Shown here piece after piece: positions 13,630 to 34,891 of a stretch of DNA of 64,000 nt. Source of the DNA: Bacteroidota bacterium (GTDB lineage Bacteria > Bacteroidota > Bacteroidia > Chitinophagales > Chitinophagaceae). The notes under the pieces were generated by a model that had not been told where the DNA came from, did not search any database, and saw nothing but the letters and a program-made list of their open reading frames with translations. The stretch covers positions 20,179 to 84,178 of the forward strand of contig VGMN01000007.1 of assembly GCA_016866355.1 (NCBI GenBank), written 5' to 3'. Position 1 is the stretch's first letter. Each line of letters starts with the position of its first letter. A program made the translations under genes and the position numbers.

Positions 13630-14643
13630 CTAACGCTGCTTTATTAATAAGGCACTAATAACAGGGCGTTCCACTCCATTGTCTCCGGGTCTAACAGTAA
13701 GTCTATTTCCGATTACCATAGCCGTAGAGCCTCCCCCATCAAGATTAATAGCATCTGTACATCCAATAGATTTTAATAAGTTGGCAAGGTCGGCTAAATT
13801 AATTCCCGGATAACCAGCAGTAGCATTATCCCCCTCTACAGCTAGTAATACTAACCGACCAGCAGCAGTATATCCGATTGCCGTACGAGGTCTGGAGGTT
13901 GTATTATTGATATTTATTAACTCCTCCACATCGCTGATCCTGACGGAACCAGCTTGCAATAAAAGCGGAGAACCACCAATAGCAGCAACAACATTCCATA
14001 CAGATCCCCCAGCTGGAAACGTTTCGGTAGGTTGTGGCTGCGGTGCTGTTCCCTCGGCGTTAGGGCTTGGTGAAGTGTATTGATATATTAAATCATTACC
14101 AGCTCCAACAGAATAGATCCATGCAGTGGTGGGAGCCCCTGTTGGCGTAATACCCAATGCAGCACGAGTAGGATAATAAGAGGTAGATGAGCCATTATAG
14201 GTCCTTGTAACGGCTTTAATATTGGGCGAACTAACAACGTTATTGTATTTCACCAAACTATATGATTGCGTGCCTCCATAATAGCCTCCATTAATGGCTA
14301 CATAAACTAATCCAGTTTCTGCAGCAGCAAATTGACTGGGAGTCCGTAAAGTGGAAGACTGTACAGGCTTGAACTCAAAACGCCCTGAGGAGTAATCAAG
14401 TGCCACACAAAATGCTTTAACAGTTCGTCCGTTAAAAATTGTATCAAAAGTAAATGCTTGGATACCCGATGGAAAATTCAAGGAGAGTGTTGCGGAATAT
14501 TTCCACCCAGGAGCTAACGTGATCAATGGCGTAATAGGTGTAGGAGTTGGCGTGGGTGTACTACCTCCACCAGATTTTGATTTAGAGCAAGCCCCACTCG
14601 CTAGCAAAATTAAGAAGGGAACAAAAAGCAGAATTTTTTTCAT
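13630..14643 (-). CDS. Phosphodiester glycosidase (NAGPA/DUF2233-like) lipoprotein
   Basis: Lipobox SGAC and a PT-rich linker. AINGGYY, RPRTAIG, LLAVEG and AINLDGGGSTAM are NAGPA-family motifs. Confidence 0.88.
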   Translation of the reverse strand: MKKILLFVPFLILLASGACSKSKSGGGSTPTPTPTPITPLITLAPGWKYSATLSLNFPSGIQAFTFDTIFNGRTVKAFCVALDYSSGRFEFKPVQSSTLRTPSQFAAAETGLVYVAINGGYYGGTQSYSLVKYNNVVSSPNIKAVTRTYNGSSTSYYPTRAALGITPTGAPTTAWIYSVGAGNDLIYQYTSPSPNAEGTAPQPQPTETFPAGGSVWNVVAAIGGSPLLLQAGSVRISDVEELININNTTSRPRTAIGYTAAGRLVLLAVEGDNATAGYPGINLADLANLLKSIGCTDAINLDGGGSTAMVIGNRLTVRPGDNGVERPVISALLIKQR

Positions 14644-14648
14644 AGAGT

Positions 14649-15752
14649 TCAATCTTTATACAAAGAAAAAGGGATTCGATTTAGGGTTTCAAAATAAAAA
14701 AATACTTCGCCATTAAAACCAAGCGAGCGATTCAGCTGCACCATCTTCTGCATAAGTTGCAGGTCTGCCTGATAGCCATCACCTAATGAAGTAAGTATTC
14801 CTGGAACAATTTTGTGAAGAAGTGTGTCTGGGATCTGACTTCGCAATTGCTTTATTATGGTACTATATGCTTCAAAATTATATCGATAAAGTTGTGGAAT
14901 AACAAGATCCGCATGATTCCCCATGAGCCATTTAGGCCAATCTTGCAAATACTCCTCAAGACTCCAAGGATAGATACTAGGTGCCCATGAAACTATGCAT
15001 GCAGGCTTTACCTTTTTAACAGATTGATAAATTTTTGCAGCGTAGTTCGATAGCTGGTCAGCCTTCCATTGTATAAAAGTCTTTTCTTTAGGATTAGCTG
15101 GCACGGCAGACCCATCAAATGCTTGCTGATATAACTTACGCGTGTAAGTATCATAACCGCCCTCAGCTGGCATGGCAGGTAAACGGTCATCACCTTGAAT
15201 GCCATCAATATCATAGTTTCTAACTACTTCTAGAATTAATGATGCTAAAAATTGCTGCGGACCAGGGTGCAAAGCATTCCACCAATAAAATCCATTTTTT
15301 TGCAATAACTCTCCTTTTACATTTCTACCACACCAATCAGGATAGCGCTGTAGCCAAACAGAATTAGTATCTCTATAGGCGTATGAGAATCCAAACTCAA
15401 ACCATGCATGAATTTTCAAACCAGCTTGATGCCCCTCCTCAATAATCTCACGCAAGGGATCTCTACCTTTAAAAGCTGGATGTTGACTGATGCCTATGTA
15501 CTGCTCCTGAATAGTACTTGGGAAAAGAGAGTAACCCCCATTCCATACCACTACAAATAAAGTGTTCAGCCCCGCTTGTTTTGCTTGCGAAACGGTTTGT
15601 TTTATATTCTCTCTAGAGTTTAAAGCTTTACTAGCCACATTGGTGACCCAAGTGCCTTTTATAGTTTCAGCGGTGGGTGTTTGCGCTATCGATAAAACAG
15701 CAGTACAACTAACAATAATAAAAAGAAATATACCTGGTAATAAAAGTTTCAA
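14649..15752 (-). CDS. GHL10 / UPF0748 (YddW/DigH-like) glycoside hydrolase, Sec-secreted
   Basis: IKGTWV, DPLREIIEEGHQAGLKIHAWFEFG, YDIDGIQGDD, YLQDWPKW and PQLYR. Signal peptide ends in A|Q. Confidence 0.85.
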   Translation of the reverse strand: MKLLLPGIFLFIIVSCTAVLSIAQTPTAETIKGTWVTNVASKALNSRENIKQTVSQAKQAGLNTLFVVVWNGGYSLFPSTIQEQYIGISQHPAFKGRDPLREIIEEGHQAGLKIHAWFEFGFSYAYRDTNSVWLQRYPDWCGRNVKGELLQKNGFYWWNALHPGPQQFLASLILEVVRNYDIDGIQGDDRLPAMPAEGGYDTYTRKLYQQAFDGSAVPANPKEKTFIQWKADQLSNYAAKIYQSVKKVKPACIVSWAPSIYPWSLEEYLQDWPKWLMGNHADLVIPQLYRYNFEAYSTIIKQLRSQIPDTLLHKIVPGILTSLGDGYQADLQLMQKMVQLNRSLGFNGEVFFYFETLNRIPFSLYKD

Positions 15753-15764
15753 ATCAACTAAGTT

Positions 15765-16703
15765 TTAGGTAGTGATTGTTTTTCGATATTCTTGGTATCG
15801 ATTGTATAAATGGTGTGCCGCTCCATACATGGACTGGGGGCTCATAAAATGAGAAAACTCGAATGTGATTGCTTTATCATATCCTGCGCGAGCCGCTGCG
15901 GCTAACTTTAGTTTTAATTTTTCAAACTTAATAGGCAAAAACTTGATAGGCATATCCCGATCAAAAGATTCGGCATTTGTCCAACATTGCATTCCATATC
16001 GATTGGCTAGCTTTTTATTAATAGTAAAAAAATCTTCCAATTCGTGGTAGCCGATATGTCCATCCTGAAACGCTACTGCATCTACAGCACCTTGTATGCC
16101 TTGGAAAATTTCATTCCACTCTTGTTCATGCGCTTGTAAGGATACTGCATCAGCCTTTGATAATTGCCCAGAAGCTGCCAATACGGCTTTTTTACCGTCA
16201 ATCCAGGGCGAAATAAAAGTGGGAAGCCCCCCGCTTACATCCTTACACAATTTTCCCAGTGTATGAAAAGCCTCTATGGCACCCTTGGTTTTACGACTAA
16301 TCTCCATACTGAGATACCAGCCCTGAAATGAGGCATGATGTCCATACCGAGACCACACCTCATCAATAACAAAACGATTAAGTTCTATCTCCTCTTTCAT
16401 GTCACCCGTATCCCAATAATGGCCGCTATCATAAAGCCCAAAATAAAATTTCATATGGTACCGATCAGCAAGCGTACAAAATAGTTCCACCAAATCTATG
16501 GGAGGTTCATAGCAACCACGGTGCTTCAATAAATAAAGCGAAGGATAAGTGAGAAAAGAACGGTAGCCGCTTCGGATGAGAATGACAGTGTCAATACCTG
16601 CATTTTTCATATGCACAAAATCCCTTTCCCATTCAAGCGGACCCCAGTTCTGGTGAGGTATATCATGACTAATCTCGTCCAAAAATGTACCGGTAATTAA
16701 CAT
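15765..16703 (-). CDS. DUF4434-domain protein (putative TIM-barrel glycoside hydrolase), no signal peptide
   Basis: MLITGTFLDEISHDIPHQNW, GIDTVIL, GWYLSME and WTNAESFDRD. Confidence 0.78.
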   Translation of the reverse strand: MLITGTFLDEISHDIPHQNWGPLEWERDFVHMKNAGIDTVILIRSGYRSFLTYPSLYLLKHRGCYEPPIDLVELFCTLADRYHMKFYFGLYDSGHYWDTGDMKEEIELNRFVIDEVWSRYGHHASFQGWYLSMEISRKTKGAIEAFHTLGKLCKDVSGGLPTFISPWIDGKKAVLAASGQLSKADAVSLQAHEQEWNEIFQGIQGAVDAVAFQDGHIGYHELEDFFTINKKLANRYGMQCWTNAESFDRDMPIKFLPIKFEKLKLKLAAAARAGYDKAITFEFSHFMSPQSMYGAAHHLYNRYQEYRKTITT

Positions 16704-16717
16704 GCAAACAATTTAAA

Positions 16718-17992
16718 TTAAGTTCCTGGTTCTATTTCTTTTTCTTTGAGCGGCACCAACCAACTTACCAAAAAGGCAGGTAGCGTTGACACCAATACCC
16801 AAATAAAAAATTGAGCATAGCCTAAATAATCACTGATAGCACCACTGATCATTGAAGCAATAGTATAACCAAAATAAGTAATAGCACTTCCAAATGCATA
16901 ATGCGCCATTTGATATTTACCTGGTGCAATTTGCTGCATAATAAAGATGATAATTCCAATAAACCCAAATCCGTACCCAAAATGCTCAATGGCAATGGCC
17001 GCTCCAATCACCCATAGGGAAGTTGCTTGTGTAATGGCTAAGTAGGCATAAGCTGCAAAGGGAAGATTAAAAAATGCACAAAGCAATAATAAAGTGCCTC
17101 GATTTAACCCCTTGTTGGAAACAAAATAGCCTGCTGCCAATGATCCCAGTACAAAAGCAACCGTGCCATATATGCCCGTGAGCAATCCTACAGTAGACTC
17201 GGTTAAACCTAACCCCCCTTCCGCCATTGATGCCTTCAAAAATAATGGCATGATTTTAATTCCTTGCCCCTCCGCAAATCGGTATAGCACAATAAATAGT
17301 ATTCCTGCTCCAATATGTTTTTTTTGGAAAAAACTAATCATCACATCTTTCAACGTGTACCAAACTTGAGCAGCAGTTTGCATAGATTGTTGTACTGCAT
17401 TATCAGGCAACACCCGACGGTTATAAATTCCCAAAAACAACAGCACCAATGCATAAATTGCCAACACAATAGCCCAAGCGTCTCGATCACCCAACAGCGG
17501 TATCAATATACCTGCCAGAAATACCATACCTCCATTTGAGAAAAGCTTAGCTACATTATAAAAAGTTCCTTGCCACCCTACATAACGTGCTTGTTGGCTA
17601 GCAGATAATTCACTGAGATAAATTCCATCAGCAGCCATATCCTGTGTAGCTCCAAAAAAAGCAATGAGAAAAAAGAGAGTAACCGATAATGGGAAAAAAA
17701 AGTTGGTGTATAAAGAAAGTACAGCTAATGCAAAAAGTACGCCGCAGGCCAATTGAGATAACTGGATATAAAACTTCTTTGTTTTATAAAGTTCCATGAA
17801 TGGACCCCACAATGGCTTAAAACTCCAAGGCAATACAATAAGTCCTGTCCAAAAAGCAATTTGAGCATCTGAATATCCCAGGCTTTTATAAAGTAGGGAT
17901 GCAATGGTTCCACCCAGCACAAGGTTTGGCAGACCCATCGCAAACCAGGTAGTGGGAATCCAGGATAGTGGGTGACGTGAATGTGTTGGCAA
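16718..17992 (-). CDS. AmpG-like MFS transporter
   Basis: About 12 TM segments. PWSFKPLWGP and ATQDMAADG resemble AmpG-family motifs. TTG start. Confidence 0.85.
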   Translation of the reverse strand: MPTHSRHPLSWIPTTWFAMGLPNLVLGGTIASLLYKSLGYSDAQIAFWTGLIVLPWSFKPLWGPFMELYKTKKFYIQLSQLACGVLFALAVLSLYTNFFFPLSVTLFFLIAFFGATQDMAADGIYLSELSASQQARYVGWQGTFYNVAKLFSNGGMVFLAGILIPLLGDRDAWAIVLAIYALVLLFLGIYNRRVLPDNAVQQSMQTAAQVWYTLKDVMISFFQKKHIGAGILFIVLYRFAEGQGIKIMPLFLKASMAEGGLGLTESTVGLLTGIYGTVAFVLGSLAAGYFVSNKGLNRGTLLLLCAFFNLPFAAYAYLAITQATSLWVIGAAIAIEHFGYGFGFIGIIIFIMQQIAPGKYQMAHYAFGSAITYFGYTIASMISGAISDYLGYAQFFIWVLVSTLPAFLVSWLVPLKEKEIEPGT

Positions 17993-18061
17993 GCAGCTTG
18001 ATTTAATAAATTATTTTAAAAACGTTTTGTGAATTTATAATATTATTTAAATAGATTCGCG

Positions 18062-19225
18062 ATGAACCTTTCATTTATTTACATGCGATTGGCCGCCCTT
18101 CTACTTCTGTCCATTTTCCTTACCGCCCAAGCTTGCAAAAAAAAATCCAGTACTGGCGGAGGCACACCTACACCCCCCACTCCAGTCTGGGATCCCAATG
18201 CCATGCGGGGGGCATGGATAACTACTACAGCTAGCACAGCCCTTGATAGCCGAGATAATATTCGTCAAATGGTAAGCACTTGCAAAGCCGCAGGCATTAA
18301 CCATTTATTTGTGGTAGTTTATAATAACGCCAGGACAACCTACCCCAGCGCTACCATGAGTGCCTTAATTGGCAAGCCCATTCTAGAACGGTTTGCGGGG
18401 AGAGACCCCCTTCAAGAGTGTATTGAGGAGGGTCATGCTGTTGGCTTAAAAGTACACGCTTGGTTTGAATATGGCTTCTCTTCTTCTTACAGTGCAGGAG
18501 GTGGAGCTATTGTCACGGCAAAGCCCCACTGGGCTGCACGTGATCTTTCAGGAAATCTTGTTGTGAAAAATGGATTTGACTGGCTTAATGGAATTCATCC
18601 CGAAGTCCAACAATTTATGGTTGATTTATTTAAAGAAGTAGTTACTAATTATGCTATTGATGGGGTGCAAGGAGATGATCGCTTGCCAGCTCTTCCCAAC
18701 ACTGGAGGCTACGACCCTTACACTATAAACCTTTACAAGAACGAAAATAATGGGGCTAGCCCTCCAACTACTGCAACTGATACCAGTTGGTTAAGATGGC
18801 GCGCAAGGAAGCTAAACAACTTTGTAAAAAGACTACGATCTGAGGTTAAAGGCATTAAACCAACTGTTTTGTTTACTATATCGCCAAGTCCTCACCCATT
18901 TGGATATAATGAGTATCTACAAGATTGGCCCACCTGGGTAGATAGCAGTTGGGTAGACGCCGTGCTTCCTCAATGTTACAGATACGATATCAACGGATAT
19001 GCTGCTGTTGTCCAACAGCAAAAGGCAGCGCACCGCAACCCAGCCGTACCACTTTACCCAGGTGTGTTACTACGATCAGGAACGTATACCGCAAGTGCTG
19101 CAATGCTGAGCCAAATGATACAGACCAACCGCAACAATGGGTTGAAAGGAGAATCTTTCTTTTTTTATGAAGGAATTAAGGACGTTAGTTCATGGTTTGC
19201 AGGACAATACCCTTTTATAAAATAG
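18062..19225 (+). CDS. GHL10 / UPF0748 glycoside hydrolase lipoprotein
   Basis: Lipobox AQAC and PT linker. MRGAWI, DPLQECIEEGH, HAWFEYG, GVQGDDRLP, YLQDWP and PQCYRY. Confidence 0.85.
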   Translation: MNLSFIYMRLAALLLLSIFLTAQACKKKSSTGGGTPTPPTPVWDPNAMRGAWITTTASTALDSRDNIRQMVSTCKAAGINHLFVVVYNNARTTYPSATMSALIGKPILERFAGRDPLQECIEEGHAVGLKVHAWFEYGFSSSYSAGGGAIVTAKPHWAARDLSGNLVVKNGFDWLNGIHPEVQQFMVDLFKEVVTNYAIDGVQGDDRLPALPNTGGYDPYTINLYKNENNGASPPTTATDTSWLRWRARKLNNFVKRLRSEVKGIKPTVLFTISPSPHPFGYNEYLQDWPTWVDSSWVDAVLPQCYRYDINGYAAVVQQQKAAHRNPAVPLYPGVLLRSGTYTASAAMLSQMIQTNRNNGLKGESFFFYEGIKDVSSWFAGQYPFIK

Positions 19226-19231
19226 TTGCAA

Positions 19232-21391
19232 ATGATTTCTAGATATGCATTAGCCATTCTTTTACTATTTACCATACATAATGGATTCGCTCAAACTTAT
19301 ACCAAATGGGTAGATCCTTTTTTAGGAACAGGGGGACATGGCCATGTGTATCCTGGCGCTACCGTACCATTTGGCATGGTACAAGTAAGCCCAGATAATG
19401 GTGTGGAGGGCTGGGATTGGTGTAGCGGTTATCATTACAGCAGTACTACCATTGCGGGTTTTAGTCATACACATTTAAGTGGGACCGGTATTGGTGATTG
19501 GTGTGACATCTCTGTACTTCCCTTGACAGACACGACGCAAGTTGGTTCTAAAAAAATATTTATTCCCTTTCAACACCAAAATGAAAAGGCAGAACCTGGT
19601 TATTACAGTGTTATACTAGATAACAAAATAAAAGTAGAACTAACAGCCGCTGACAGAACTGGGTACCATCGCTACACATTTCCCGCAAATAAGGGTTGGG
19701 TTCGTTTTGACATGGGCTTTGCCATCAACTGGGACCAATCAACTGCAGGCCAACTTCAATTAATTGATTCATTTACGCTCGTGGGATATCGCTTTAGCAC
19801 TGGTTGGGCAAAAGGGCAAAAGGTTTTTTTTGCAGCGCGTTTCAATACACCCGTTCAGCAATTAGTTTTTATTGATGATTCCACGCATTCACGTTATCGT
19901 GCGGTGGGTAAACAAGTAAAAGCCTTGCTTGAATTCAACACTTCACAGCCCTTAGAATTTAGTGTGGCACTTAGCAGCGTTAGTACAGAGAAGGCGCAAA
20001 TGGAACTCTACAGCCAATTAAATAATCAATTTGATCAAGTAGCACAAAAAGCAACAAACCGCTGGGAAAGAGAATTAGAAAAAATAAAAATTGATACCAC
20101 TAACCGCGATCTAGCCATTCGTTTTTATACAGCGCTATACCGCACTTCATTAGCCCCGGTTGTTCAAAGTGATGCAGATGGACAATACCAAACACACGAC
20201 AACAAGATTCGTAGATTCACCAACGGTGTAAATAAGTATACCATTTTTTCGCAATGGGATGTATTTCGTGCTTCAAATCCACTTTTTACACTGCTTCAGC
20301 CAGAACGTTATAGGGACATGCTTAACAGCATGCTTGCTTTTTATGATGACAATGGGCTCCTACCCGTTTGGGATATTAGCACTTGGGAAGCCAATACAAT
20401 GACTGGGTATCACAGTGTGCCCATTCTGGCAGACGCCATTCTCAAAGAGATTAAAGGATTTGATATTTATAGAGCGTATGAAGCAATGAAAAAAAGTGCC
20501 AATCAATCCCAACGCGGAACACCGGCCTATCTGCAATATGGCTATGTACCCCATGACAAACATGGATGGAGTGTTACCACCACGTTGGAATATGCATTTG
20601 ATGATTGGTGTATTGCGCAAGTTGCAAAAAAGCTGGGTCGACATGCTGACTTCCAACTATACAGCCAACGCGCCAACTCATATAAAGCACTTTTTGACTC
20701 CACTACAGGATTTTTTAGAGCCCGCTTGAGTAATGGACAATTTAAAGAACCTTTTGATCCCTTATTAAGTGAGCACGGCTTTGAAGGACAATATATAGAG
20801 GGAACAGCGTGGCAGCATAGTTTTTTTGTTCCGCATGATGTAGAGGGCTTTGCTCGTTTACACGGAGGAAAAGAAAAGCTACTACAAAAACTAGACTCAC
20901 TTTTTACAGCCCCATCAGAGTTACATGGTCAGGATGTGTCGATAGATGTAACGGGATTAATTGGTCAATATGCACATGGAAATGAGCCAAGTCACCATAT
21001 CATTTATTTATACACGGCCCTGGGCGCTCCAGAAAAAGCAGCCCATTGGGTTAGGGTTGTAGCGGATAGCATGTACAAAAATGGGCCCGATGGTCTAACC
21101 GGCAATGATGACTGTGGACAGATGAGTGCTTGGTATATATGGTCTTCACTGGGAATGTATCCACTTAATCCCGCATCAGGCCAATACGTATTTGGATTGC
21201 CCCTTATTAAGGAAGCAGTGATTGAGTTGACACAAAATAAAAAAGTAAAAATTCAGGTATTAACTATACCTGGACAAGGAAAAAAAGGAATTGCAAAAGT
21301 GAAATGGAATAAAAAAGAAATTCCACTGTATGCCATTTCACATCAACAATTACAAGAGGGAGGCACATTGACTTATTATGTGTATGAGTAA
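19232..21391 (+). CDS. GH92 alpha-mannosidase family protein
   Basis: GTGGHGHVYPGATVPFGMVQ, FSHTHLSGTG, EGTAWQH (acid), HGNEPSHH and GNDDCGQMSAW (base). Confidence 0.93.
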   Translation: MISRYALAILLLFTIHNGFAQTYTKWVDPFLGTGGHGHVYPGATVPFGMVQVSPDNGVEGWDWCSGYHYSSTTIAGFSHTHLSGTGIGDWCDISVLPLTDTTQVGSKKIFIPFQHQNEKAEPGYYSVILDNKIKVELTAADRTGYHRYTFPANKGWVRFDMGFAINWDQSTAGQLQLIDSFTLVGYRFSTGWAKGQKVFFAARFNTPVQQLVFIDDSTHSRYRAVGKQVKALLEFNTSQPLEFSVALSSVSTEKAQMELYSQLNNQFDQVAQKATNRWERELEKIKIDTTNRDLAIRFYTALYRTSLAPVVQSDADGQYQTHDNKIRRFTNGVNKYTIFSQWDVFRASNPLFTLLQPERYRDMLNSMLAFYDDNGLLPVWDISTWEANTMTGYHSVPILADAILKEIKGFDIYRAYEAMKKSANQSQRGTPAYLQYGYVPHDKHGWSVTTTLEYAFDDWCIAQVAKKLGRHADFQLYSQRANSYKALFDSTTGFFRARLSNGQFKEPFDPLLSEHGFEGQYIEGTAWQHSFFVPHDVEGFARLHGGKEKLLQKLDSLFTAPSELHGQDVSIDVTGLIGQYAHGNEPSHHIIYLYTALGAPEKAAHWVRVVADSMYKNGPDGLTGNDDCGQMSAWYIWSSLGMYPLNPASGQYVFGLPLIKEAVIELTQNKKVKIQVLTIPGQGKKGIAKVKWNKKEIPLYAISHQQLQEGGTLTYYVYE

Positions 21392-25315: not shown

Positions 25316-25347
25316 ATAAAAAAGGGGCACTTTAACGAGTGCCCCTT
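25316..25347 (-). terminator. Intrinsic terminator after susD
   Basis: Minus-strand 10-bp stem AAGGGGCACT-cgttaa-AGTGCCCCTT followed by a T run, 19 nt after the susD stop. Confidence 0.85.
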
Positions 25348-25365
25348 CCTTTTAAAAACAATCAA

Positions 25366-27147: not shown

Positions 27148-27164
27148 ATACTAATTTTTTTTGT

Positions 27165-30100
27165 TTAGAAGTTGATGTTTACACCTACAGTCATTGTACG
27201 CATCAGCGGATAAAATTCTGCGTTGGCATTATTGATCTCTGGATCAAATCCATCCCATGCATTTGTCAAGGTGAGTAAATTTTGTCCACTGATAAACACT
27301 TTGGCTCCACTCAGCGGCATACCTGATTTGTTGAACCAGCTGGCGGGAACACGGTAAGCGATATTTACATTCTTCAAACGCAAGAAAGAAGCGTCGCGAA
27401 CCCAGTGCGAGGAAGCTACATAGTTGTTGCCTCCACTTCCGGATGGCAACAAACGTGGAAAGCGGGCATTAGGGTTAGAAGCAGTCCAGTAGTCCTTATG
27501 ATGTTTCAATAAAGAAGCCGCAAAATCACTGCTGGCAAATGGAACAGCACCCGTACCACTGTAATAGTTGTTACGCATTCCAACACCCTGGCCAAAAATG
27601 CTGATATCTAAATTTCCAAAAGATAAATTCAGATTTAAACTGTACTCGTAACGTGGGAAGTTGTTACCAATGAATGTTCTGTCAAAGTTGTCAACCTTGC
27701 CATCAGGCTTACCATCAGGCCCACTTATATCAGCATACTTTACATCTCCAGGCTTGGAACCCACAGTTGGATTGGAACTCCAGGCCGTACCAAATTGTAC
27801 AGGTGAATTTTTGACATCATTGGAATCAGCAAAATAACCAATAGACTGATATCCAAAATAAGACCACAGCGCTTGACCAGGAGCGGTGCGAATAGATCCA
27901 CCATCTAAAAAAGGAACACCTGGAAGCGTTAATACCTTGTTGCGAACATCAGAGATCATTGCAGTTACATCCAACTTCACTTTTGCAGATAACGCCTTTT
28001 TATAATTAGCGCTAAACTCCCATCCACGATTCTCCATAGAGCCGGCGTTTATAAATGGAGCATTCAATCCAACATAGTTAGGAATCGGACGGCTCAGCAA
28101 CATCTGATCCACTTTACGGCGATATATTTCAGCCGTAAGGGTCAAGTTATTTTTAATTGTTAGGTCTAATCCAATATTTGCTTGTTCGGATTGCTCCCAA
28201 GTGATGTTTGGATTAGGAGCATCCAATAAAGCATAACCCAATGTGTTTACATTATTGATATAGTTATTCGTACCATTAATTGGATTTGAATAGGTAGAGG
28301 TACCAAAGTTTACTGCAAATGGATAGATCTCTGGTAATGCTTGGTTACCCAAAACACCCCAAGAACCTCTTAACTTACCAAAAGTGATTACATTAGAGAG
28401 ACCCGCAAAGAAATTCTCTCTGCTGAATATCCAACCAGCAGAAGCTGATGGGAAAAAGCCCCATTGCTTATCTAACTCTTGGGAGAAACGGGAAGAGCCA
28501 TCATAACGACCATTTACTTCAATAAAATACTTGTCATCATAATTGTAATTCAACCGTGCATAGAAACCTGCCAATGCTGTCTCATAGGCAGAACCACCAT
28601 TGTTAATATTTCCACTTCCCAAACTCAAATAAGGTTGGTTAGGATTAAGAAACCCAGTTCTAGACGCAGAAATTCCAGAGAAAGTAAATTCCTCTGTTTG
28701 GGCACCTCCCAAAAGCTTTATAGAATTAGCACCAAAACGTTTTGTCCAGGTAGCCTGTGCTAAATAGGTAGTACGAACGTTGGTTGAGTAAGACTCACCC
28801 AAACTTGTAGAACCAGGCCATACACCAACTTTATCATATCCCAATGTGGCAAGGTTAGGAACATAGATGTCTACATTCTTCACAAAAGATTTTCCATTAG
28901 GGGTCCAAAACTCACGAGCCCAGTAACCTTCAATTTCTAGGTTATTTACCGGCTTATAATTGAAACCAACTTTTGTGAGCATGGTATTATTACGAGAAAC
29001 AGAAGTACCTGCAGCCTCCGCCATAGCAAGCGGGTTTCTATTGTTTGTTTGTCCAGCAGTTCCATATATACCAGGTCCATATTTACCACCTCCTACAGCA
29101 GGCAAACCAATCGCCTGACGAATAATAAACTCTGGAGAACCAGTAGAGGGTGCAGTTGTTCTGCTACTATTAATATTCAATAGACCATTGATGCTTAACT
29201 TATCGTTTAGTTTAAAATCAGGATTAAAACGAAGGTCATAGCGCTGGTGGCTATTATTAGGTACTAAACCTTGCTGATTCAAATAAGTAATAGAAGCAAA
29301 AATGTTAGAATTATCACCTGCAGAATTAATAGTGACGTTATGATTCTGCATCAATCCAGTATTGGAAAGTAATAAACCCAGCCAATCTGTATCAATTACA
29401 TCCAAATTATTTGGCGCTGTTGTCTTATACTTATCAATAAGTGCTTGTGTAAAAAGAAAAGCATTTGGATTACCAGTTCTGTTACGTTCAGCAAGATTGC
29501 TCAACTCCATATGGTCAACTGCGGTAGTGCGCTCTGGAATGGCTGTTGCATCTTGTTTGCTTAAAAAAGCATTATAAGACACCTGTACTCCTTTACCTTT
29601 TGCTCTTTTGGTTTTAACAAGCACTACTCCATTAGCAGCACGTGCACCATAGATAGCTGTGGAAGCAGCATCTTTTAAAATTGTAATACTCTCAATAGCG
29701 TTAGGGTCAATCATATCAAACCCAGACACTACTCCATCCACCATAATTAGTGGACTTTGTCCAGCGTAAATTGAACCAAGACCCCGTATACGAATGGAAG
29801 CACCATCTGCACCAGGACGTCCTGATTGTTGTTGCACCGTTACACCAGGAGCTAAGCCTTGCAATAAGTTGCTAGCGGTAGCTACCTGACGCTTAGTCAA
29901 ATCCTCCTGCTTCAATGTAACAACAGATCCAGTCAATGTTGCTTTTCGTTGCTGGCCATATCCTACCACTACTACCTCAGATAAGGTGTTGTTGGTAGCA
30001 TCTAACTTAACCTGCAATGAAGTGCCACTAACCTTCACTTCTTTGTTGGTAAGTCCTACGCTGCTGAATACTAGTGTCTCTCCTGCACCAGCGGCGATAA

Positions 30101-30278
30101 CAAACTCACCAGACGTGTTAGTTACTGCACCGGTAGCCTTACCTTTCACGCTAACCGAAACACCTTCAATGGCGTTTCCGTTGGCATCGGTAACCTTTCC
30201 GGAGATTTTCGTTTGTTGCGCCTCAGCAAAACCCACAAAAAATGTGAGTAGCCAGCACAACAGGATTGCTTTTCCCAT
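27165..30278 (-). CDS. susC: SusC/RagA TonB-dependent transporter
   Basis: CarboxypepD-like N-domain, LSEVVVVGYG, ILKDAASTAIYGARAANGVVLV, RYDGSSRF, FLRLKN and terminal F. Confidence 0.97.
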   Translation of the reverse strand: MGKAILLCWLLTFFVGFAEAQQTKISGKVTDANGNAIEGVSVSVKGKATGAVTNTSGEFVIAAGAGETLVFSSVGLTNKEVKVSGTSLQVKLDATNNTLSEVVVVGYGQQRKATLTGSVVTLKQEDLTKRQVATASNLLQGLAPGVTVQQQSGRPGADGASIRIRGLGSIYAGQSPLIMVDGVVSGFDMIDPNAIESITILKDAASTAIYGARAANGVVLVKTKRAKGKGVQVSYNAFLSKQDATAIPERTTAVDHMELSNLAERNRTGNPNAFLFTQALIDKYKTTAPNNLDVIDTDWLGLLLSNTGLMQNHNVTINSAGDNSNIFASITYLNQQGLVPNNSHQRYDLRFNPDFKLNDKLSINGLLNINSSRTTAPSTGSPEFIIRQAIGLPAVGGGKYGPGIYGTAGQTNNRNPLAMAEAAGTSVSRNNTMLTKVGFNYKPVNNLEIEGYWAREFWTPNGKSFVKNVDIYVPNLATLGYDKVGVWPGSTSLGESYSTNVRTTYLAQATWTKRFGANSIKLLGGAQTEEFTFSGISASRTGFLNPNQPYLSLGSGNINNGGSAYETALAGFYARLNYNYDDKYFIEVNGRYDGSSRFSQELDKQWGFFPSASAGWIFSRENFFAGLSNVITFGKLRGSWGVLGNQALPEIYPFAVNFGTSTYSNPINGTNNYINNVNTLGYALLDAPNPNITWEQSEQANIGLDLTIKNNLTLTAEIYRRKVDQMLLSRPIPNYVGLNAPFINAGSMENRGWEFSANYKKALSAKVKLDVTAMISDVRNKVLTLPGVPFLDGGSIRTAPGQALWSYFGYQSIGYFADSNDVKNSPVQFGTAWSSNPTVGSKPGDVKYADISGPDGKPDGKVDNFDRTFIGNNFPRYEYSLNLNLSFGNLDISIFGQGVGMRNNYYSGTGAVPFASSDFAASLLKHHKDYWTASNPNARFPRLLPSGSGGNNYVASSHWVRDASFLRLKNVNIAYRVPASWFNKSGMPLSGAKVFISGQNLLTLTNAWDGFDPEINNANAEFYPLMRTMTVGVNINF

Positions 30279-30307
30279 AATAGATGTTTGTTTTTGGTTT
30301 ACGATTT

Positions 30308-32272
30308 TTATGATGAAGAATAATTTCCGAAGTGATTTATTTTTAAAACTGAAAACGGATCAATAATCTTGTCCAACAAAATGGCCAACTCTCTTTTAGT
30401 TACAGGACGCTCAGCCTGGAAATTAGTAAGCCCCCATGCCTCCCAATTAGCTCTTACCCACTCCGTCATGTATTGCTTCTTATCATCATAAGATTTATGA
30501 GTTAGAAAAGACATAGAATTATCTATAGCCTCGAGTAACTCAATAGCTCTATTCATTGAAAGTAAACCCTCACGTTTAGCGGGTTCGGTCCACTTACTAA
30601 GCGGATTGATAAATGAAGGATTGCCCAAATTTTTAGTGGGTACAAAAGCCGGTAATTGAGAAATAAATTGATAGACCGTGATAGTTGAGTCAGGTTCAAA
30701 CCAAGTTCTATTTGCCCATGCATTGGGCTGTCCTTTACCTCTTAAAAAGCCACTGGCACCAATACGTTGAATAGCTTCAAATCCCAGATCAGCACTACTT
30801 ACATCTGCATAGGGCATTAGGTATGCTTTTTGTTGTAGCAAAGTGGATTGTACCTGACGAACAGGAACCAGGCGTGCATCCCTTTTTTTATTTTGAACCG
30901 CTAAGGCCGCTAATGCTCCGGCAGCTTGCCCAATCAATACTACACAAGGTTGCAAACGTGTTGTACCATTCACTACATTACTAACACTAATTCCTTTCTC
31001 AGCCACCACCAGCCCTGTATGCATGGCAGGCAATAAAGTTCCCAACGGAATGGCAAAAGATGGGATAGGATAAAACCCAAGATGCTGAGGAGCAGCAGGG
31101 TTTTTTCGATGATGATGATCAATAGGATAATCTCCAACGGCTATCCCCGTCCTATACAAGGGATAAGGTTGATCAAAAGGCTTACTAATATCTTGTACTT
31201 TAAAGCGAACAATCCCTCTTAACCTTCTGCCTTCCCTGTTGTATGGAATTAAAGCCAGTCGATCAGCAGTAGGAAACTCGTCATCTGCCAACCCCAGGTT
31301 TTTATAACCCAGCTGCTGTTGTAAAAAGTATATATACCGAAGTGTTTGCTGCTTTGCTTTTACTAATTTGTTGGCCCTTTCTTCAGGAGCTAGTTGAATC
31401 AGATTTAAATAAATATCATTTCCATGGCCTGGCCAATTTAACATGTACTTATTGCCAGGCAGTTTTGCATACGTAATCATTTTAGCACAGTCAACACCCG
31501 GTTTAATTCGCGTAGTATCCTTATAAAAATCAAGACAGCAACCGTCAAATTCAGTGGGATCATATCCAGCGGGTTTGGCAATGGTACAATCAACACCGCT
31601 GCCATAGTCCTTTAGTATGGCTACATAGGTTAGGTCCTGAATAATATCATTAGAGGCAGGAACCTGTACATTTTCGCCAGTTAAGGCACTAGACTCCATG
31701 CCTAAATCAAAAGGTATGCCCGCGCTGGCCATCACATCCCCAAGCTCAGTAGCATCAACTACTTGGTTTGCATATACAACTAACGCATCCCCATTAATTC
31801 GGCTAATGAATCGTGCTCCGGCAACATGTGAATTTTTTTGCAGGATGGCGGACTTGAATTGATACTGATATAATACCTGTAAACTTTTTTCTGCAGCAGC
31901 CATCTCTTTCCAAATCTGGTTGGCAACATGTGGTTCAAAATGGGTATTACTCACCCATCCGGTAGCCACTTTTGAAGAACCTCCATAGTGCTTATAAATT
32001 AGCCCCCTAAACTCACCCCATAAACCAGCAGGAAGTAAATGATTTCCGTCCGTTGCAGAAACACCAGCTGCACTAAGCATTCCACCCAACCAAGTGGTTT
32101 CTTCCACTATCAAAGTATTAGCATGTGAGCGGGCCGCCTGTATACCTGCAGCAATGCCAGCAGTTCCACCACCTACCACTAACACATCAACATGAAGTAC
32201 ACGTTGCGCATATAGGAATTGGCTACCAGCAAGTAGTAAACTGAAAAAGAAATATGTTGTTCTTTTTTGCAT
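30308..32272 (-). CDS. Secreted FAD-dependent oxidoreductase (PF12831-like) with C-terminal SLH-like repeats
   Basis: Signal peptide ending A|Q, then DVLVVGGGTAG, TWLGGML, DATELGD, YNREGRR, GDYPIDHH and NGTTRLQP. Confidence 0.85.
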   Translation of the reverse strand: MQKRTTYFFFSLLLAGSQFLYAQRVLHVDVLVVGGGTAGIAAGIQAARSHANTLIVEETTWLGGMLSAAGVSATDGNHLLPAGLWGEFRGLIYKHYGGSSKVATGWVSNTHFEPHVANQIWKEMAAAEKSLQVLYQYQFKSAILQKNSHVAGARFISRINGDALVVYANQVVDATELGDVMASAGIPFDLGMESSALTGENVQVPASNDIIQDLTYVAILKDYGSGVDCTIAKPAGYDPTEFDGCCLDFYKDTTRIKPGVDCAKMITYAKLPGNKYMLNWPGHGNDIYLNLIQLAPEERANKLVKAKQQTLRYIYFLQQQLGYKNLGLADDEFPTADRLALIPYNREGRRLRGIVRFKVQDISKPFDQPYPLYRTGIAVGDYPIDHHHRKNPAAPQHLGFYPIPSFAIPLGTLLPAMHTGLVVAEKGISVSNVVNGTTRLQPCVVLIGQAAGALAALAVQNKKRDARLVPVRQVQSTLLQQKAYLMPYADVSSADLGFEAIQRIGASGFLRGKGQPNAWANRTWFEPDSTITVYQFISQLPAFVPTKNLGNPSFINPLSKWTEPAKREGLLSMNRAIELLEAIDNSMSFLTHKSYDDKKQYMTEWVRANWEAWGLTNFQAERPVTKRELAILLDKIIDPFSVLKINHFGNYSSS

Positions 32273-32285
32273 GACCACAGCGCTA

Positions 32286-33491
32286 CTATATTTCGTTAAT
32301 GGGAGTTTTCAATACATTCCAAATTTGATAGAGCGAACGAGGTATATGAAAACAACCTTTCCATTTGCCGCCTTTTAGTGAGAGCAATACCTCACCTCCT
32401 CTGTTCAAATACCCAAACCACTCACCATACTCGGGATCTCGAAAATGTTTCCATGTATATTGATGGACTTTCTCAAACCAAGCAGCGCAGGCTGGGTCTC
32501 CTGTCAATTGATACCCTTTTGCCAATGCTACCAGCGCTTCCACATGCACCCACCATAATTTCTGATCCCATTCTAATTGTTGCGTTGGATGACCTTTGTA
32601 ATCCAAGAAATAAAAAATACCCCCAAATTCCTGATCCCATCCAACTTTAAGCATATGCAACATGATATCCTTTGCTTTTACAACCAAGGAAGAATCATTC
32701 ATTCGCACAGCCAGATCCATTATAAACCACATGGCTTCAATGGCGTGTCCTGGATTTAATAAACGACCTTCAAAACTGTCGCAAAAACTTCCATCAGTAT
32801 ACACGTTCTCCAAAACCAACCCTGAATCAGGCTGGTAAAACACCTCCATTACCTCATGAATCACTCCAGGCAATATTGCATCCACTCTTTTTTTACCTAA
32901 AAGCGGCTCCAATTCAAGTGATAAATTGGAAAGAATCATAGGCAAACTAAAATTCTTAAGCACCCGCGTACCTGGTACAGCCTTGCTATAAATACCCTTC
33001 CAGTTATGTTGACGACGTAAAATATTTTCGAAGGTGTCAATGGCAATTTGTTTATACTGATCTGAAGGGCTGGCTTTATCTAAAGCCGCAAATCCCATAG
33101 TAGCAAAACAGTCACTGAAAATATTGTAAGGCTGAACTAATGGACGCCCATCCTGCGTTAAAGAGAAATACCAATTACCAGCCTTATCTCGTCCAAATTT
33201 CTCCATGAAATTAGCGCCATGCTTTGCCATCTCTAACCACTCAGGGCGAGCTTCCACTAAATTATACATGGTACTAAAACACCATACACCTCTGCCCTGT
33301 AGCCACATGAATTTATCAGTATCATAGACATTGCCCACACGATCTATACAAGTAAAATAGCCACCATGTGTAGTATCCTTGCTATATCGCAACCAAAAAG
33401 GAAGGATCTGTTCAGTTAATTCTCTATAGTATAAAGGGGCATATTGATGGATATCCACCCCATTTTGAACGGCAGTTTGATTGGCAAGCAT
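32286..33491 (-). CDS. N-acylglucosamine 2-epimerase (AGE family, GlcNAc/ManNAc epimerase type)
   Basis: WLQGRGVW, NPGHAIEAMWF, KLWWVH, EWFGYL and KGCFHIPR. No signal peptide. Confidence 0.92.
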   Translation of the reverse strand: MLANQTAVQNGVDIHQYAPLYYRELTEQILPFWLRYSKDTTHGGYFTCIDRVGNVYDTDKFMWLQGRGVWCFSTMYNLVEARPEWLEMAKHGANFMEKFGRDKAGNWYFSLTQDGRPLVQPYNIFSDCFATMGFAALDKASPSDQYKQIAIDTFENILRRQHNWKGIYSKAVPGTRVLKNFSLPMILSNLSLELEPLLGKKRVDAILPGVIHEVMEVFYQPDSGLVLENVYTDGSFCDSFEGRLLNPGHAIEAMWFIMDLAVRMNDSSLVVKAKDIMLHMLKVGWDQEFGGIFYFLDYKGHPTQQLEWDQKLWWVHVEALVALAKGYQLTGDPACAAWFEKVHQYTWKHFRDPEYGEWFGYLNRGGEVLLSLKGGKWKGCFHIPRSLYQIWNVLKTPINEI

Positions 33492-33643
33492 GATTAGAAT
33501 TCTTACAATTAAATAAGGCCTGACAGCAAATTCGTCAATAAAATTATAAAAAACAACAATCTTTTTAAATTTTTTTATTTAGTAGCCCCCCTGCACCAGC
33601 ATTTCAGGTCTTTTAAATACTTTAGACCTCCCATAAGATCTCC

Positions 33644-34891
33644 ATGAAAAGAAATACAGCCGTCACTACGCACAGAATTATTGAATTGTTTAACGATGTC
33701 AACGTATCAGGGGTTGCCTATAAAAACAAATCTTTAAAAAGAAGTATCCTAAGCCACCTGGACCAACATGGAGAGTTTACGATTACTGAGTTAAGCCGAG
33801 AGTTAAATACAAGTGTTCCGAAAATTACCAGTCTGGTTAATGAACTTATTGAGGATGGCTTAATTCGAGATAATGGAAAATTTGACTCGACAGGTGGAAG
33901 AAGGGCCAGCATTTATGGCTTAGTAGCAGACGCCTGCTATTTCATTGGGGTTGACGTTAAAAGATACTACATCAATATTGGCTTACTTGATTTTAAAAAA
34001 CACTTGGTCAGCTTGCGTGAAAAAATTCCATACAAGCTGGAAAATACGCAAGCCTCCTATCAGCAATTATTGAACTGCATTCGAGAATTTATTCAGACCG
34101 AAAACATTAAAAAAGAAAAAATTCTTGGTCTGGCCATCAACCTTTCAGGTAGAATTAATAATACTAGTGGATACAGCTATAGCTATTTTCATTTTCAAGA
34201 AGAGCCATTGGCAGAAACCATTCATCGAGAATTAGGGATTCCTACTTTTTTAGAAAACGACTCCCGCTCCATGGCATTCGGAGAGTTTCACTATGGAGAG
34301 GCAACTAATGCACAAAACGTGCTCTTTGTTAATATGGATTATGGTATTGGATTGGGAATCTTGTTGGACGGTAAACTATATTATGGTAAGTCAGGGTTTA
34401 GCGGAGAGTTTGGCCACATTCCTTTTTTCTCTAATGAGATATTGTGCCATTGTGGAAAAAAAGGTTGTTTGGAAACAGAAGCATCCGGACAATCACTGGT
34501 TAGAATATTCCGCCAAAAGATCAAACAGGGATATACCTCATCAGCATTGAAAAAGAAGAAAGATCTCTCAGAACTAAGTTTGTTAGATATCATCAATGCG
34601 GCCAATAATGAAGACATGCTCAGCATAGAATTATTGGCTGAAATAGGAGAAAACCTTGGAAAGGGACTGGCCGTACTCATCAATTTGTTCAATCCCGAAT
34701 TGCTAATCCTAGGAGGCATCTTGTCTGAGACGGGAGACTACATCCGTTTACCCATCAAAAGTGCAATTAATAAATACTCGTTGAGTCTCGTCAATAATGA
34801 CACACAGCTAAGAATATCCAGACTTGGCGAGAAGGCCGGGGTTATGGGGGCTTGCTTGCTTGCCCGTAACAAAGTGCTGACTCATCCTTGA
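33644..34891 (+). CDS. ROK-family transcriptional repressor
   Basis: N-terminal wHTH (TITELSRELNTSVPKITSLVNELIEDG; STGGRR), ENDSR, GEFGH and Zn motif CHCGKKGCLE. Confidence 0.93.
   Translation: MKRNTAVTTHRIIELFNDVNVSGVAYKNKSLKRSILSHLDQHGEFTITELSRELNTSVPKITSLVNELIEDGLIRDNGKFDSTGGRRASIYGLVADACYFIGVDVKRYYINIGLLDFKKHLVSLREKIPYKLENTQASYQQLLNCIREFIQTENIKKEKILGLAINLSGRINNTSGYSYSYFHFQEEPLAETIHRELGIPTFLENDSRSMAFGEFHYGEATNAQNVLFVNMDYGIGLGILLDGKLYYGKSGFSGEFGHIPFFSNEILCHCGKKGCLETEASGQSLVRIFRQKIKQGYTSSALKKKKDLSELSLLDIINAANNEDMLSIELLAEIGENLGKGLAVLINLFNPELLILGGILSETGDYIRLPIKSAINKYSLSLVNNDTQLRISRLGEKAGVMGACLLARNKVLTHP

Follow-up and report, generated by a model that had tools for sequence, protein, structure and literature searches.

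The question raised by this locus is which glycan it serves. It spans 21 kb in three operons of the window (the whole stretch of 64,000 nucleotides analysed) from a small-genome freshwater (lake) Bacteroidota bacterium whose genome is 96% complete, and the original prediction had assigned it to ManNAc/GlcNAc-phosphate wall glycopolymers of other bacteria. ORFs and a Pfam/NCBIfam profile scan revealed 13 of 13 genes intact, and the earlier gene layout and family calls hold for all 13. We read the locus as a PUL for ManNAc-containing amino-sugar glycopolymers of other bacteria, feeding the GlcNAc pool, with a probability of about 55%. The substrate class, bacterial ManNAc/HexNAc glycopolymers, is well supported, and the enzymatic specificities and the identity of the polymer are what we infer.

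One operon, on the minus strand, begins with a cytoplasmic N-acylglucosamine 2-epimerase (AGE / NanE-II type, 32286..33491; PF07221, 250 bits), which scores 650 bits against a cutoff of 600 for the NCBIfam equivalog NF052547. It is followed by an exported PF12831 FAD-dependent oxidoreductase (30308..32278; 285 bits), a SusC-like TonB-dependent transporter (27165..30278; CarboxypepD_reg, Plug and barrel domains), a SusD-like lipoprotein (25366..27147; PF07980 and PF14322) and DUF5009, an HGSNAT-like transmembrane acetyltransferase (23875..25290, longest ORF to 25365; PF16401, 273 bits). The terminator proposed earlier between susD and DUF5009 is indeed present as a terminator-like hairpin on the minus strand (25318..25351; 14-pair stem, 6 GC pairs, T-run), directly 3′ of the susD stop. 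This makes the ATG near 25290, rather than the longest-ORF start at 25365, the probable true start of DUF5009, whose relatives have 462–472 aa. On the plus strand lie GHL10b, a lipoprotein of the GHL10 hydrolase family (18062..19225; PF02638, 204 bits; lipobox LTAQAC/K; E=7e-14 with Cwp19, PDB 5OQ2), an exported GH92 exo-alpha-mannosidase (19226..21391; PF07971, 530 bits, plus N-terminal domain; E=1e-167 with PDB 6F8Z) and an exported, divergent GH20-like beta-N-acetylhexosaminidase of 831 aa (21378..23873; GH20b domain), the last tail to tail with DUF5009. The remaining operon, again on the minus strand, comprises an AmpG-like MFS inner-membrane importer (16718..17992; TIGR00901, 109 bits against a cutoff of 350), DUF4434 (15765..16703; PF14488, 270 bits), a cytoplasmic GH-A-like TIM barrel without signal peptide and a candidate ManNAc-releasing glycosidase, GHL10a, an exported GHL10-family TIM-barrel hydrolase (14649..15752; PF02638, 191 bits) that is 42% identical to GHL10b, and a NAGPA-family phosphodiester glycosidase (13630..14652; PF09992, 100.9 bits). 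The NAGPA gene overlaps that of GHL10a by 4 nt. Its product is a lipoprotein, contains a Thr/Pro linker and shows LASGAC/S at the N-terminus; its match to human NAGPA (PDB 6PKU) has E=4e-8.

The clustering of these genes is far beyond chance; the full three-operon layout is kept at 45–95% amino-acid identity in ~35 Chitinophagaceae loci of other species. A distant Bacteroidia genome has the same gene set in another order, ROK-FADox-DUF4434(Tat)-Sugar_tr-AGE-SusC-SusD-DUF5018 (L080), continued by (GHL10-DUF4985-NAGPA fusion)-SASA esterase-GHL10-DUF5009-SGNH esterase-GH20 (L111), with GHL10 and NAGPA fused into one protein. Divergent from AGE stands a NagC/NanR-like repressor of the ROK family (33644..34891, plus strand; PF00480 and HTH_24), which has a winged HTH at its N-terminus and scores under the cutoffs of the NagC and Mlc equivalogs. 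With an operator PWM built from relatives only, a 23-bp palindrome has its top four genome-wide matches in the two promoter regions of the locus and in front of glmS and nagB. The highest-scoring one (33561..33583; 30.0 bits) is in the AGE/ROK intergenic region, the second (18001..18023; 29.2 bits) in the promoter region from which the AmpG-like and GHL10b genes diverge, and the third (9461..9483, plus strand; 21.1 bits) ~75 nt ahead of glmS-DUF4954, which lies outside the locus and probably belongs to the regulon. Four matches of at least 20 bits were observed versus 0.4 in local shuffles, and a PWM from one promoter region finds the other. From these four matches a single ROK (NagC/NanR-like) amino-sugar regulon is predicted, covering all three operons, glmS and nagB; the B. 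thetaiotaomicron counterpart of the regulator, BT0433, is named NanR (PMC3878776). The original prediction had the three operons co-regulated and syntenic elsewhere; synteny was looked for and found, and a specific predicted operator common to both promoter regions is consistent with co-regulation.

The ManNAc part of the reading centres on DUF4434. The window protein is 72% identical to BT_0435 (PDB 4H41), and Glu134 and Glu245, located after strands 4 and 7 of the TIM barrel, do not vary across 16 orthologues. DUF4434 almost always has an AGE epimerase and a transporter beside it, AGE being its most constant partner and directly adjoining it in 9 of 15 contexts from other genomes. The compartment of DUF4434 shifts together with the transporter type: proteins with a Tat signal adjoin Sugar_tr (L080, L081) or a nucleoside:H+ symporter-type MFS (L082), and cytoplasmic ones are accompanied by an AmpG-like or SSF transporter. 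E. coli YbcH is a PF14488 member (235 bits) and belongs to the nfrBA-ybcH operon, whose Nfr synthase uses UDP-ManNAc (PMC8669469). DUF4434 is thus linked to ManNAc by two independent lines, the AGE/transporter context and YbcH in a ManNAc-polymer operon, and the ManNAc part of the original prediction finds its support here.

The nfr operon also points to another target, a secreted ManNAc exopolysaccharide or capsule that is not wall-bound, such as an Nfr-type polymer, sometimes O-acetylated, or a ManNAc-1-phosphate polymer. Some NfrB homologues have links to acetyltransferase machinery (PMC8669469), relatives of the locus carry esterases, NAGPA could cut HexNAc-1-phosphodiesters, and the minimal core in several genomes consists only of transporter, DUF4434, AGE, flavoprotein and ROK. 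A homopolymer, however, leaves GH92, the GH20-like gene, DUF5009 and two GHL10 genes unexplained, together with the Amidase_3 and MurK/MurQ genes found nearby in relatives, and we regard such a target as unlikely, though one to be reckoned with.

Sialoglycan or sialic acid use in the style of nan clusters would make AGE a NanE and ROK a NanR, with esterases in addition. Ravcheev et al. placed BT0433-0438 in the NanR 'sialic acid; GlcNAc' regulon, and one relative of the locus carries a SASA-family esterase. Nevertheless, the 96% complete genome contains no BNR sialidase match and no plausible candidate for Neu5Ac lyase, and the ORFs flanking its second DHDPS-family gene, judged by eye, resemble an aldehyde dehydrogenase and an FAD oxidase, a non-nan context. 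From the lack of a sialidase match and this context it follows that, as far as gene content can tell, sialic acid cannot be the source of ManNAc here, and in this respect the genome inventory supports the original prediction. To our knowledge, B. thetaiotaomicron is also without the sialic acid lyase pathway, which counts against a sialic-acid reading, and we consider its probability next to negligible. We also know of no eukaryotic glycan of which ManNAc is a constituent except through sialic acid.

The AmpG-like MFS, whose gene is the genome's sole AmpG-family member, would probably import a disaccharide. In the tree it is sister to GH130/GH92-linked transporters, split 100/100 from the AnmK/NamZ-linked AmpG, and the transporters with which it groups sit beside GH130, several GH92 and BT1044-like GH18 in N-glycan-type loci. 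On this position it was rejected as an orthologue of peptidoglycan AmpG; the import of peptidoglycan fragments foreseen for it did not find support, and the grouping counts against the peptidoglycan part of our reading. It favours instead a PUL for eukaryotic N-glycans with GlcNAc-1-P-6-Man or alpha-GlcNAc caps (of algae, protists or zooplankton, for example), in which GH92 would trim mannose, NAGPA would uncover Man-6-P, the GH20-like enzyme would remove GlcNAc, and the MFS would import the Man-beta-1,4-GlcNAc core for cleavage by DUF4434. An alpha-mannosidase is recurrent (GH92 here, GH38 in L085), and two further points count against our main reading: the lysosome-like set of NAGPA, HGSNAT-like protein, hexosaminidase and mannosidase also fits phosphorylated N-glycans, and the homologous region of B. 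thetaiotaomicron adjoins a sialidase cluster and N-glycan genes, its BT0438 being activated on mucin O-glycans and responding to keratan sulfate. However, GH18, GH85 and PNGase were not detected in the locus, nor was GH130 in the genome, which has GH92 in a single copy. With AGE at equivalog level in a genome offering no route from sialic acid by sialidase match or plausible lyase, and with YbcH tying the DUF4434 family to a ManNAc polymer, a eukaryotic-glycan PUL appears distinctly unlikely.

In housekeeping recycling of the cell's own peptidoglycan, GHL10 would correspond to DigH, the MFS to AmpG and DUF4434 to NagZ. The sole AmpG-family gene does occur in a genome with AnmK, MurK and MurQ, and GHL10 / AmpG-like-DUF4434 here has a parallel in another Bacteroidota family, where GHL10-AmpG-GH3 form a cluster close to AnmK. 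Yet DUF4434 orthologues occur in 16 of 401 sampled Bacteroidota genomes and in 2 of 21 of the window's own family, the locus contains SusC/SusD, GH92 and AGE, the transporter falls outside the peptidoglycan-AmpG clade, and relatives send GHL10 and NAGPA out by T9SS, all of which render own-wall recycling very improbable. In our main reading, AnmK, MurK and MurQ and the GHL10-AmpG-GH3 parallel count as links to the peptidoglycan side, and these three genes, together with the NagA and NagB of the same genome, support the original prediction.

How far, then, does the wall-glycopolymer reading extend? Synteny, the operator, the DUF4434–ManNAc link and the GHL10–NAGPA association sustain the bacterial ManNAc/HexNAc class but not the linkage unit as the specific target. 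The proposed joint action of GHL10 and NAGPA is supported by their adjacency in three lineages (L090 among these) and fusion in one (L111); distant relatives have T9SS-secreted Amidase_3, GHL10 and NAGPA, with MurK or MurQ nearby. Classical teichoic-acid linkage units leave GH92, and the recurrence of an alpha-mannosidase, unexplained, which counts against the reading. The peptidoglycan-WTA linkage unit is only one of several candidates. They include secondary wall polymers bound to peptidoglycan and their linkage units, the polysaccharide attached to the peptidoglycan of cyanobacteria, and exopolysaccharides with ManNAc. The cyanobacterial polysaccharide is made up of GlcN, ManN, GalN, Man and Glc (PMC4488944), a composition that would explain the presence of GH92 in a bacterium from a lake. 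In our reading, the target polymers would be O-acetylated, partly N-deacetylated and phosphodiester-linked.

For such a bacterial glycopolymer the following route is proposed. SusC/SusD would take in soluble fragments, from which SGNH or SASA O-acetylesterases, carried by relatives, would strip O-acetyl groups in the periplasm. DUF5009, which intermixes with the HGSNAT clade (PMC12423673), would re-N-acetylate free glucosamine residues with cytoplasmic acetyl-CoA, so that the GH20-like enzyme, whose catalysis needs the acetamido group, could act. The earlier 'GH20' call holds for the family, by alignment with PDB GH20 chains (9FYL, E=7e-10, and 8HVB), against which alone the catalytic domain is seen, and by the kept Asp-Glu pair (IHVGFDE at the HxGxDE motif position); it does not extend to a Pfam catalytic-domain match, since only the GH20b accessory domain reaches the Pfam threshold. 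NAGPA and GHL10 would cut HexNAc-1-phosphodiester attachments and the amino-sugar backbone, and GH92 would take off alpha-mannose. The AmpG-like MFS may then bring in a disaccharide, proposed as ManNAc-beta-1,4-GlcNAc or similar, for hydrolysis by cytoplasmic DUF4434 with its two putative catalytic Glu in beta-mannosidase fashion. AGE would convert ManNAc to GlcNAc, which the genome's kinase, NagA and NagB would pass to central metabolism, the one ROK repressor governing the three operons plus glmS and nagB. The PF12831 flavoprotein, a member of the conserved core that co-occurs with DUF4434 in L080, L083 and L084, is without a place in this model and counts against it; in profile searches its PDB matches are confined to the dinucleotide-binding N-terminus, and the C-terminal 170 aa gave no family match.

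Among known systems, the ROK regulons of E. coli NagC and B. fragilis NanR likewise have an HTH+ROK repressor divergent from its target operon and an AT-rich 23-bp palindrome as operator, and the predicted glmS and nagB targets are shared with NagC. The regulon here differs in taking in a SusC/D PUL, and its regulator in lying below the NagC and Mlc cutoffs. Lysosomal NAGPA, HGSNAT and hexosaminidase belong to homologous families and follow the same logic of acetylating a free amine before cleavage; here, however, the enzymes would act in a bacterial periplasm, a GH20-like enzyme takes the place of GH89 as partner glycosidase, and heparan-type lyases and uronidases are absent from the set. Peptidoglycan recycling clusters, E. 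coli AmpG-NagZ-AnmK-MurQ and Tannerella forsythia Tanf_08345-08385, resemble the locus in the AmpG-superfamily MFS, the GHL10 homologue alongside and the genomic AnmK, MurK and MurQ, but the locus is without NamZ, NagZ and amidase. In a cluster of the T. forsythia type (L100), AmpG is preceded by genes for a Metallophos+PQQ protein, GT2 and DUF4922; should the first gene there be the equivalent of the 'xanthan lyase' Tanf_08345, then its product does not belong to PF12831. Sus-paradigm PULs, such as the N-glycan PUL BT1032-1051, share the SusC/SusD pair with exported glycosidases, and N-glycan PULs also share the AmpG-like MFS importing a disaccharide for a cytoplasmic enzyme. That partner is GH130 in L093 and L095, in contrast to DUF4434 and AGE here, where in addition an endo-beta-N-acetylglucosaminidase is lacking and a ROK repressor replaces the HTCS or ECF-sigma system.

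A close likeness is also seen in BT0433-BT0449 of B. thetaiotaomicron VPI-5482, a predicted NanR regulon with orphan SusC/D loci that carries the same gene set by published annotation: the ROK regulator BT0433 (NanR), DUF4434 BT0435, MFS transporter BT0436, AGE BT0437, SusC/D BT0439-0440, DUF5009 BT0446, phosphoesterase BT0448 and two 'family 10 glycosylhydrolase' genes, BT0447 and BT0449. The last designation is, in our view, the PGAP term for GHL10. Where NAGPA stands in the window locus, B. thetaiotaomicron has GH89 (BT0438) and a calcineurin-type phosphoesterase; its DUF4434 is annotated as exported whereas that of the window is cytoplasmic, and its block is without GH92 and the GH20-like gene. 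An orphan gene set of mostly uncharacterised enzyme families is thus common to this freshwater bacterium and B. thetaiotaomicron.

Thirteen intact genes make up the locus (13630-34891 of the window), arranged as three compact transcription units with a divergent regulator; neighbouring genes inside the operons overlap by up to 14 nt or are separated by up to 29 nt. Eight hydrolase-like genes are co-localised in these operons with SusC (27165-30278, minus strand; CarboxypepD_reg, Plug and barrel domains) and SusD (25366-27147, minus strand; PF07980 and PF14322). The adjacent SusC/SusD pair and the co-localised enzymes, which have a common predicted operator, mark the locus as a predicted Bacteroidota PUL. 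The gene families named in the original prediction were each borne out by Pfam and NCBIfam, and the proposed hairpin 3′ of susD is present at 25351-25318 as a 14-pair stem with a T-run; for this reason the start of DUF5009 is probably near 25290. By their N-termini, NAGPA, both GHL10 proteins, GH92, the GH20-like protein, SusC, SusD and the flavoprotein carry a lipoprotein or signal peptide, and DUF4434 and AGE carry none. The host contig (C7) belongs to a 1.76-Mb assembly, 96% complete and of 41% GC, whose closest named relatives are MAGs of freshwater Chitinophagales, among them a 'bacI' bin from Lake Biwa. The locus takes up ~1.2% of this streamlined genome.

Synteny of the three operons in other genomes, as was anticipated, is extensive. 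A scan with one genome per species gave 71 loci carrying the GH20-like gene, and in about 35 of them the complete layout is kept, i.e., NAGPA-GHL10-DUF4434-AmpG, GHL10-GH92-GH20-like, DUF5009-SusD-SusC-flavoprotein-AGE and ROK (45-95% identity; genera include Lacibacter, Hydrotalea and Ferruginibacter). Most relatives have one additional gene between DUF4434 and AmpG, a secreted GDSL esterase of 223 aa (L014, L030, L078 and other loci), which appears to have been cleanly lost in the streamlined genome because only 14 nt (16704-16717) are left at its position. One relative carries an SSF symporter in place of the AmpG-like gene. In a distant Bacteroidia genome the set is reordered over two loci (L080 and L111), comprising ROK, flavoprotein, DUF4434 with a twin-arginine (Tat) signal, Sugar_tr, AGE, SusC, SusD, DUF5018, a GHL10-DUF4985-NAGPA fusion, a SASA esterase, GHL10, DUF5009, an SGNH esterase and GH20. 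The same gene set is found, according to published annotation, at BT0433-0449 of Bacteroides thetaiotaomicron.

Co-regulation of the operons, also part of the original prediction, is upheld at the level of a predicted operator. The regulator is of the NagC/NanR type, with an HTH joined to a ROK domain, and its predicted operator is a palindrome found at the promoters of the putative targets. A 23-bp AT-rich palindrome, about TTAATAA-N7-TTATTAA, is common to the orthologous intergenic regions; it precedes AGE and recurs in the stretch that separates AmpG from GHL10b. A weight matrix built from the relatives only was scanned over the 1.76-Mb genome and yielded four matches of at least 20 bits, compared with 0.4 in local shuffles. 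The best genomic match (30 bits) lies at 33561-33583 and another of 29 bits at 18001-18023; with a matrix from one region alone, the other region was recovered among the top five genomic matches. Since the operator is common to the promoter regions, the three operons are predicted to belong to a single ROK regulon, NagC/NanR-like and tied to amino-sugar synthesis and catabolism.

A clue to the substrate comes from DUF4434, a full-length PF14488 protein (270 bits). Its model is a (β/α)8 barrel with a TM-score of 0.90 to 4H41, the structure of BT_0435, which is 72% identical to it. Two glutamates are invariant, Glu134 following strand 4 and Glu245 following strand 7, and in the model they take the arrangement of clan GH-A; the structural neighbours include the GHL10 protein Cwp19 and GH5 β-mannosidases. 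Few genomes carry an orthologue (16 of the 401 Bacteroidota sampled, 2 of the 21 from the family of the host), yet conservation is strong, with 66-81% identity across the class. Of 15 contexts in other genomes, nine have DUF4434 beside AGE and all have a transporter near it, often with the PF12831 flavoprotein, ROK, NAGPA or DUF5009 as well. The compartment of the enzyme shifts with the type of transporter: where it carries a twin-arginine signal (L080-L082), the transporter alongside is Sugar_tr in L080 and L081 and a nucleoside:H+ symporter-type MFS in L082, and a cytoplasmic enzyme is accompanied by an AmpG-like or SSF transporter. The simplest reading of this shift is that the product of DUF4434 is the monosaccharide used by AGE, i.e., ManNAc. 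Exopolysaccharide operons of the synthase type usually encode an enzyme that hydrolyses the polymer produced. Independently of the gene contexts, YbcH of E. coli is a full-length DUF4434 protein (235 bits) encoded in nfrBA-ybcH, and the Nfr synthase uses UDP-ManNAc, which leads to a putative ManNAc polymer (PMC8669469). A β-ManNAc glycoside precludes the neighbouring-group mechanism of GH20 enzymes, and with that route closed a two-carboxylate, β-mannosidase-like enzyme would be expected.

AGE itself passes the NCBIfam equivalog NF052547 with 650 bits against a cutoff of 600, while cellobiose 2-epimerase reaches just 73 bits. The genome holds NagA, NagB-II, a ROK kinase, AnmK, MurK and MurQ. 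A sialic-acid (nan) pathway was considered for this genome and rejected: BNR sialidase (BNR_2) gave no match in it, and it has two DHDPS-family genes, a presumable dapA and a second one that lies, by eye, outside a nan context. In the cluster at C4:87920-93906, on another contig, this second gene is followed by ORFs whose N-termini resemble, by eye, an aldehyde dehydrogenase and an FAD oxidase, and the cluster resembles a hydroxyproline-type catabolic one rather than a sialic-acid one.

The importer does not appear to be the muropeptide permease AmpG. The AmpG-like MFS protein, the sole AmpG-family gene in the genome, scores 109 bits against the TIGR00901 cutoff of 350, and its clade is split (100/100) from the AmpG linked to AnmK, NamZ and MurKQ; the suggestion of a peptidoglycan AmpG is thus not sustained. 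In the tree it groups with transporters adjoining GH130, several GH92 and BT1044-like GH18, and an importer of ManNAc-β-1,4-GlcNAc would plausibly be closely related to a Man-β-1,4-GlcNAc importer. The GH92 of the locus is closest to 6F8Z (E = 1e-167), and the occurrence of GH38 in a related locus (L085) indicates that α-mannose is a genuine part of the substrate in some lineages. These mannose-directed features bring up the alternative that the locus is a PUL for N-glycans. Such a PUL would be recognised by an endo-β-N-acetylglucosaminidase, GH130 and several GH92, a set that the locus does not have. This alternative is weakened because GH130 is absent from the genome, GH92 is single, the locus is without an endoglycosidase and AGE would be left without explanation. 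The reading as a PUL for ManNAc-containing glycopolymers of other bacteria is preferred. The peptidoglycan-bound polysaccharide of cyanobacteria fits the enzyme set and the lake habitat, and the secondary wall polymers that Bacillaceae build from ManNAc-GlcNAc fit as well (PMC6801904).

The remaining enzymes bear on how such polymers might be released. NAGPA (PF09992, 100.9 bits versus a cutoff of 25; human NAGPA, E = 4e-8) belongs by family to the predicted phosphodiester glycosidases and would match the GlcNAc-1-P link of wall polymers. Both GHL10 proteins are clear members of PF02638 (191 and 204 bits; Cwp19, E = 7e-14). A natural GHL10-DUF4985-NAGPA fusion of 727 aa in the distant Bacteroidia genome (L111:11539-13722) provides a Rosetta-stone link between predicted partners, GHL10 and NAGPA, whose genes overlap by 4 nt in the window; in a genome of another class a T9SS-secreted GHL10 is directly followed by NAGPA. 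DUF5009 (PF16401, 273 bits) is, by its domain and the placement of its family, a putative HGSNAT-like acetyltransferase, the family being intermixed with the HGSNAT clade (PMC12423673). In favour of peptidoglycan, the esterases and DUF5009 would match its two classical modifications, and distant relatives have a T9SS-secreted Amidase_3 beside AmpG-NAGPA, with MurK or MurQ close.

The designation GH20 is tentative. The protein aligns with GH20 catalytic chains, residues 396-648 matching 9FYL with E = 7e-10 (phmmer), and retains the Asp-Glu pair as IHVGFDE, in agreement with HxGxDE; the Pfam threshold was reached for the GH20b domain only, and PF00728 was not reported by the Pfam scan. In Saprospiraceae (L040, L047, L048, L061 and L064) the enzyme has a different setting: its gene runs divergently from a sulfatase of SGSH type, i.e., N-sulfoglucosamine sulfohydrolase-like, and from a T9SS animal-haem-peroxidase homologue, with SusC close by. 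The sulfatase hints at the handling of a modified HexNAc.

The PF12831 flavoprotein (30308-32278, minus strand) belongs to the conserved core. A PDB profile search matched the FAD-binding N-terminus alone, and the single-sequence AlphaFold model has a pLDDT of 33. The C-terminal ~170 aa (30308-30820) show the conserved motifs DV..HPHF.SIQRIGATG and ITRxELAVLLD. These may faintly resemble S-layer-homology repeats; Pfam SLH gave E = 0.025 and 0.084 in two of four orthologues and covered the TRxELA motif alone. Two assignments to PF12831 were dismissed. A de-pyruvylation role would have been implied if XalA of Paenibacillus, whose lyase activity is specific for pyruvated mannose, were a PF12831 protein; a review assigns it to PL8. 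For the 'xanthan lyase' at the start of the T. forsythia ampG operon, the equivalent cluster (L100) has a Metallophos+PQQ protein, GT2 and DUF4922 instead and gives no link to the flavoprotein.

The substrate originally proposed is supported as far as ManNAc/HexNAc glycopolymers of bacteria that would supply the GlcNAc pool, with one regulator in control, are concerned; the peptidoglycan linkage unit as the specific target is plausible. A more daring proposal, which we regard as rather unlikely, is that the locus family specialises in feeding on the 'hardened' walls of other bacteria. In that scheme all of the three modifications that shield peptidoglycan from muramidases would be undone in the periplasm: esterases would strip O-acetylation, the HGSNAT-like DUF5009 would reverse N-deacetylation, and the GHL10-NAGPA pair would cut the polymer attachment at MurNAc-O6. 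The freed ManNAc-β-1,4-GlcNAc would then be handled by DUF4434, and in lakes the chief prey polymer would be the mannose/mannosamine polysaccharide on cyanobacterial peptidoglycan.

In lakes, soils and guts, much organic carbon and nitrogen is stored in the debris of bacterial cell walls. To our knowledge, from a sparse check of the literature, no PUL has been linked with polymers that contain ManNAc or are bound to peptidoglycan. No paper was found by full text under 'N-acetylmannosaminidase', and the family names DUF4434, PF12831, GHL10 and DUF5009 returned almost nothing informative. If the proposal is true, DUF4434 would be the first known β-N-acetylmannosaminidase. The locus family spans a streamlined 1.76-Mb lake bacterium and, by published annotation, B. 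thetaiotaomicron, and it unites six families of predicted function (DUF4434, DUF5009, PF12831, GHL10, bacterial NAGPA and a divergent GH20). Cheap direct tests in E. coli K-12 and B. thetaiotaomicron could start from the predicted regulon with its operator, from the fusion of GHL10 with NAGPA and from the link to YbcH.

Also in favour of peptidoglycan, a GHL10-AmpG-GH3 cluster in a genome of another family (L096), with AnmK nearby, mirrors the GHL10 and AmpG-like-DUF4434 arrangement of the window. As for the regulator, the 20.6- and 17.1-bit matches on the two strands at C6:102799-102822, a further contig of the genome, fall in the spacer that separates nagB-II (C6:102834-104762) from a canonical GH20 (C6:100430-102751), which makes nagB a probable member of the ROK regulon. 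The third-best genomic match (21 bits, 9461-9483) is about 75 nt upstream of glmS (9557-11398), which is followed by DUF4954 (11416-13629). This match suggests that the ROK repressor also controls glmS-DUF4954. In E. coli, NagC controls glmUS, and the likely control of glmS-DUF4954 by ROK here would be its counterpart.
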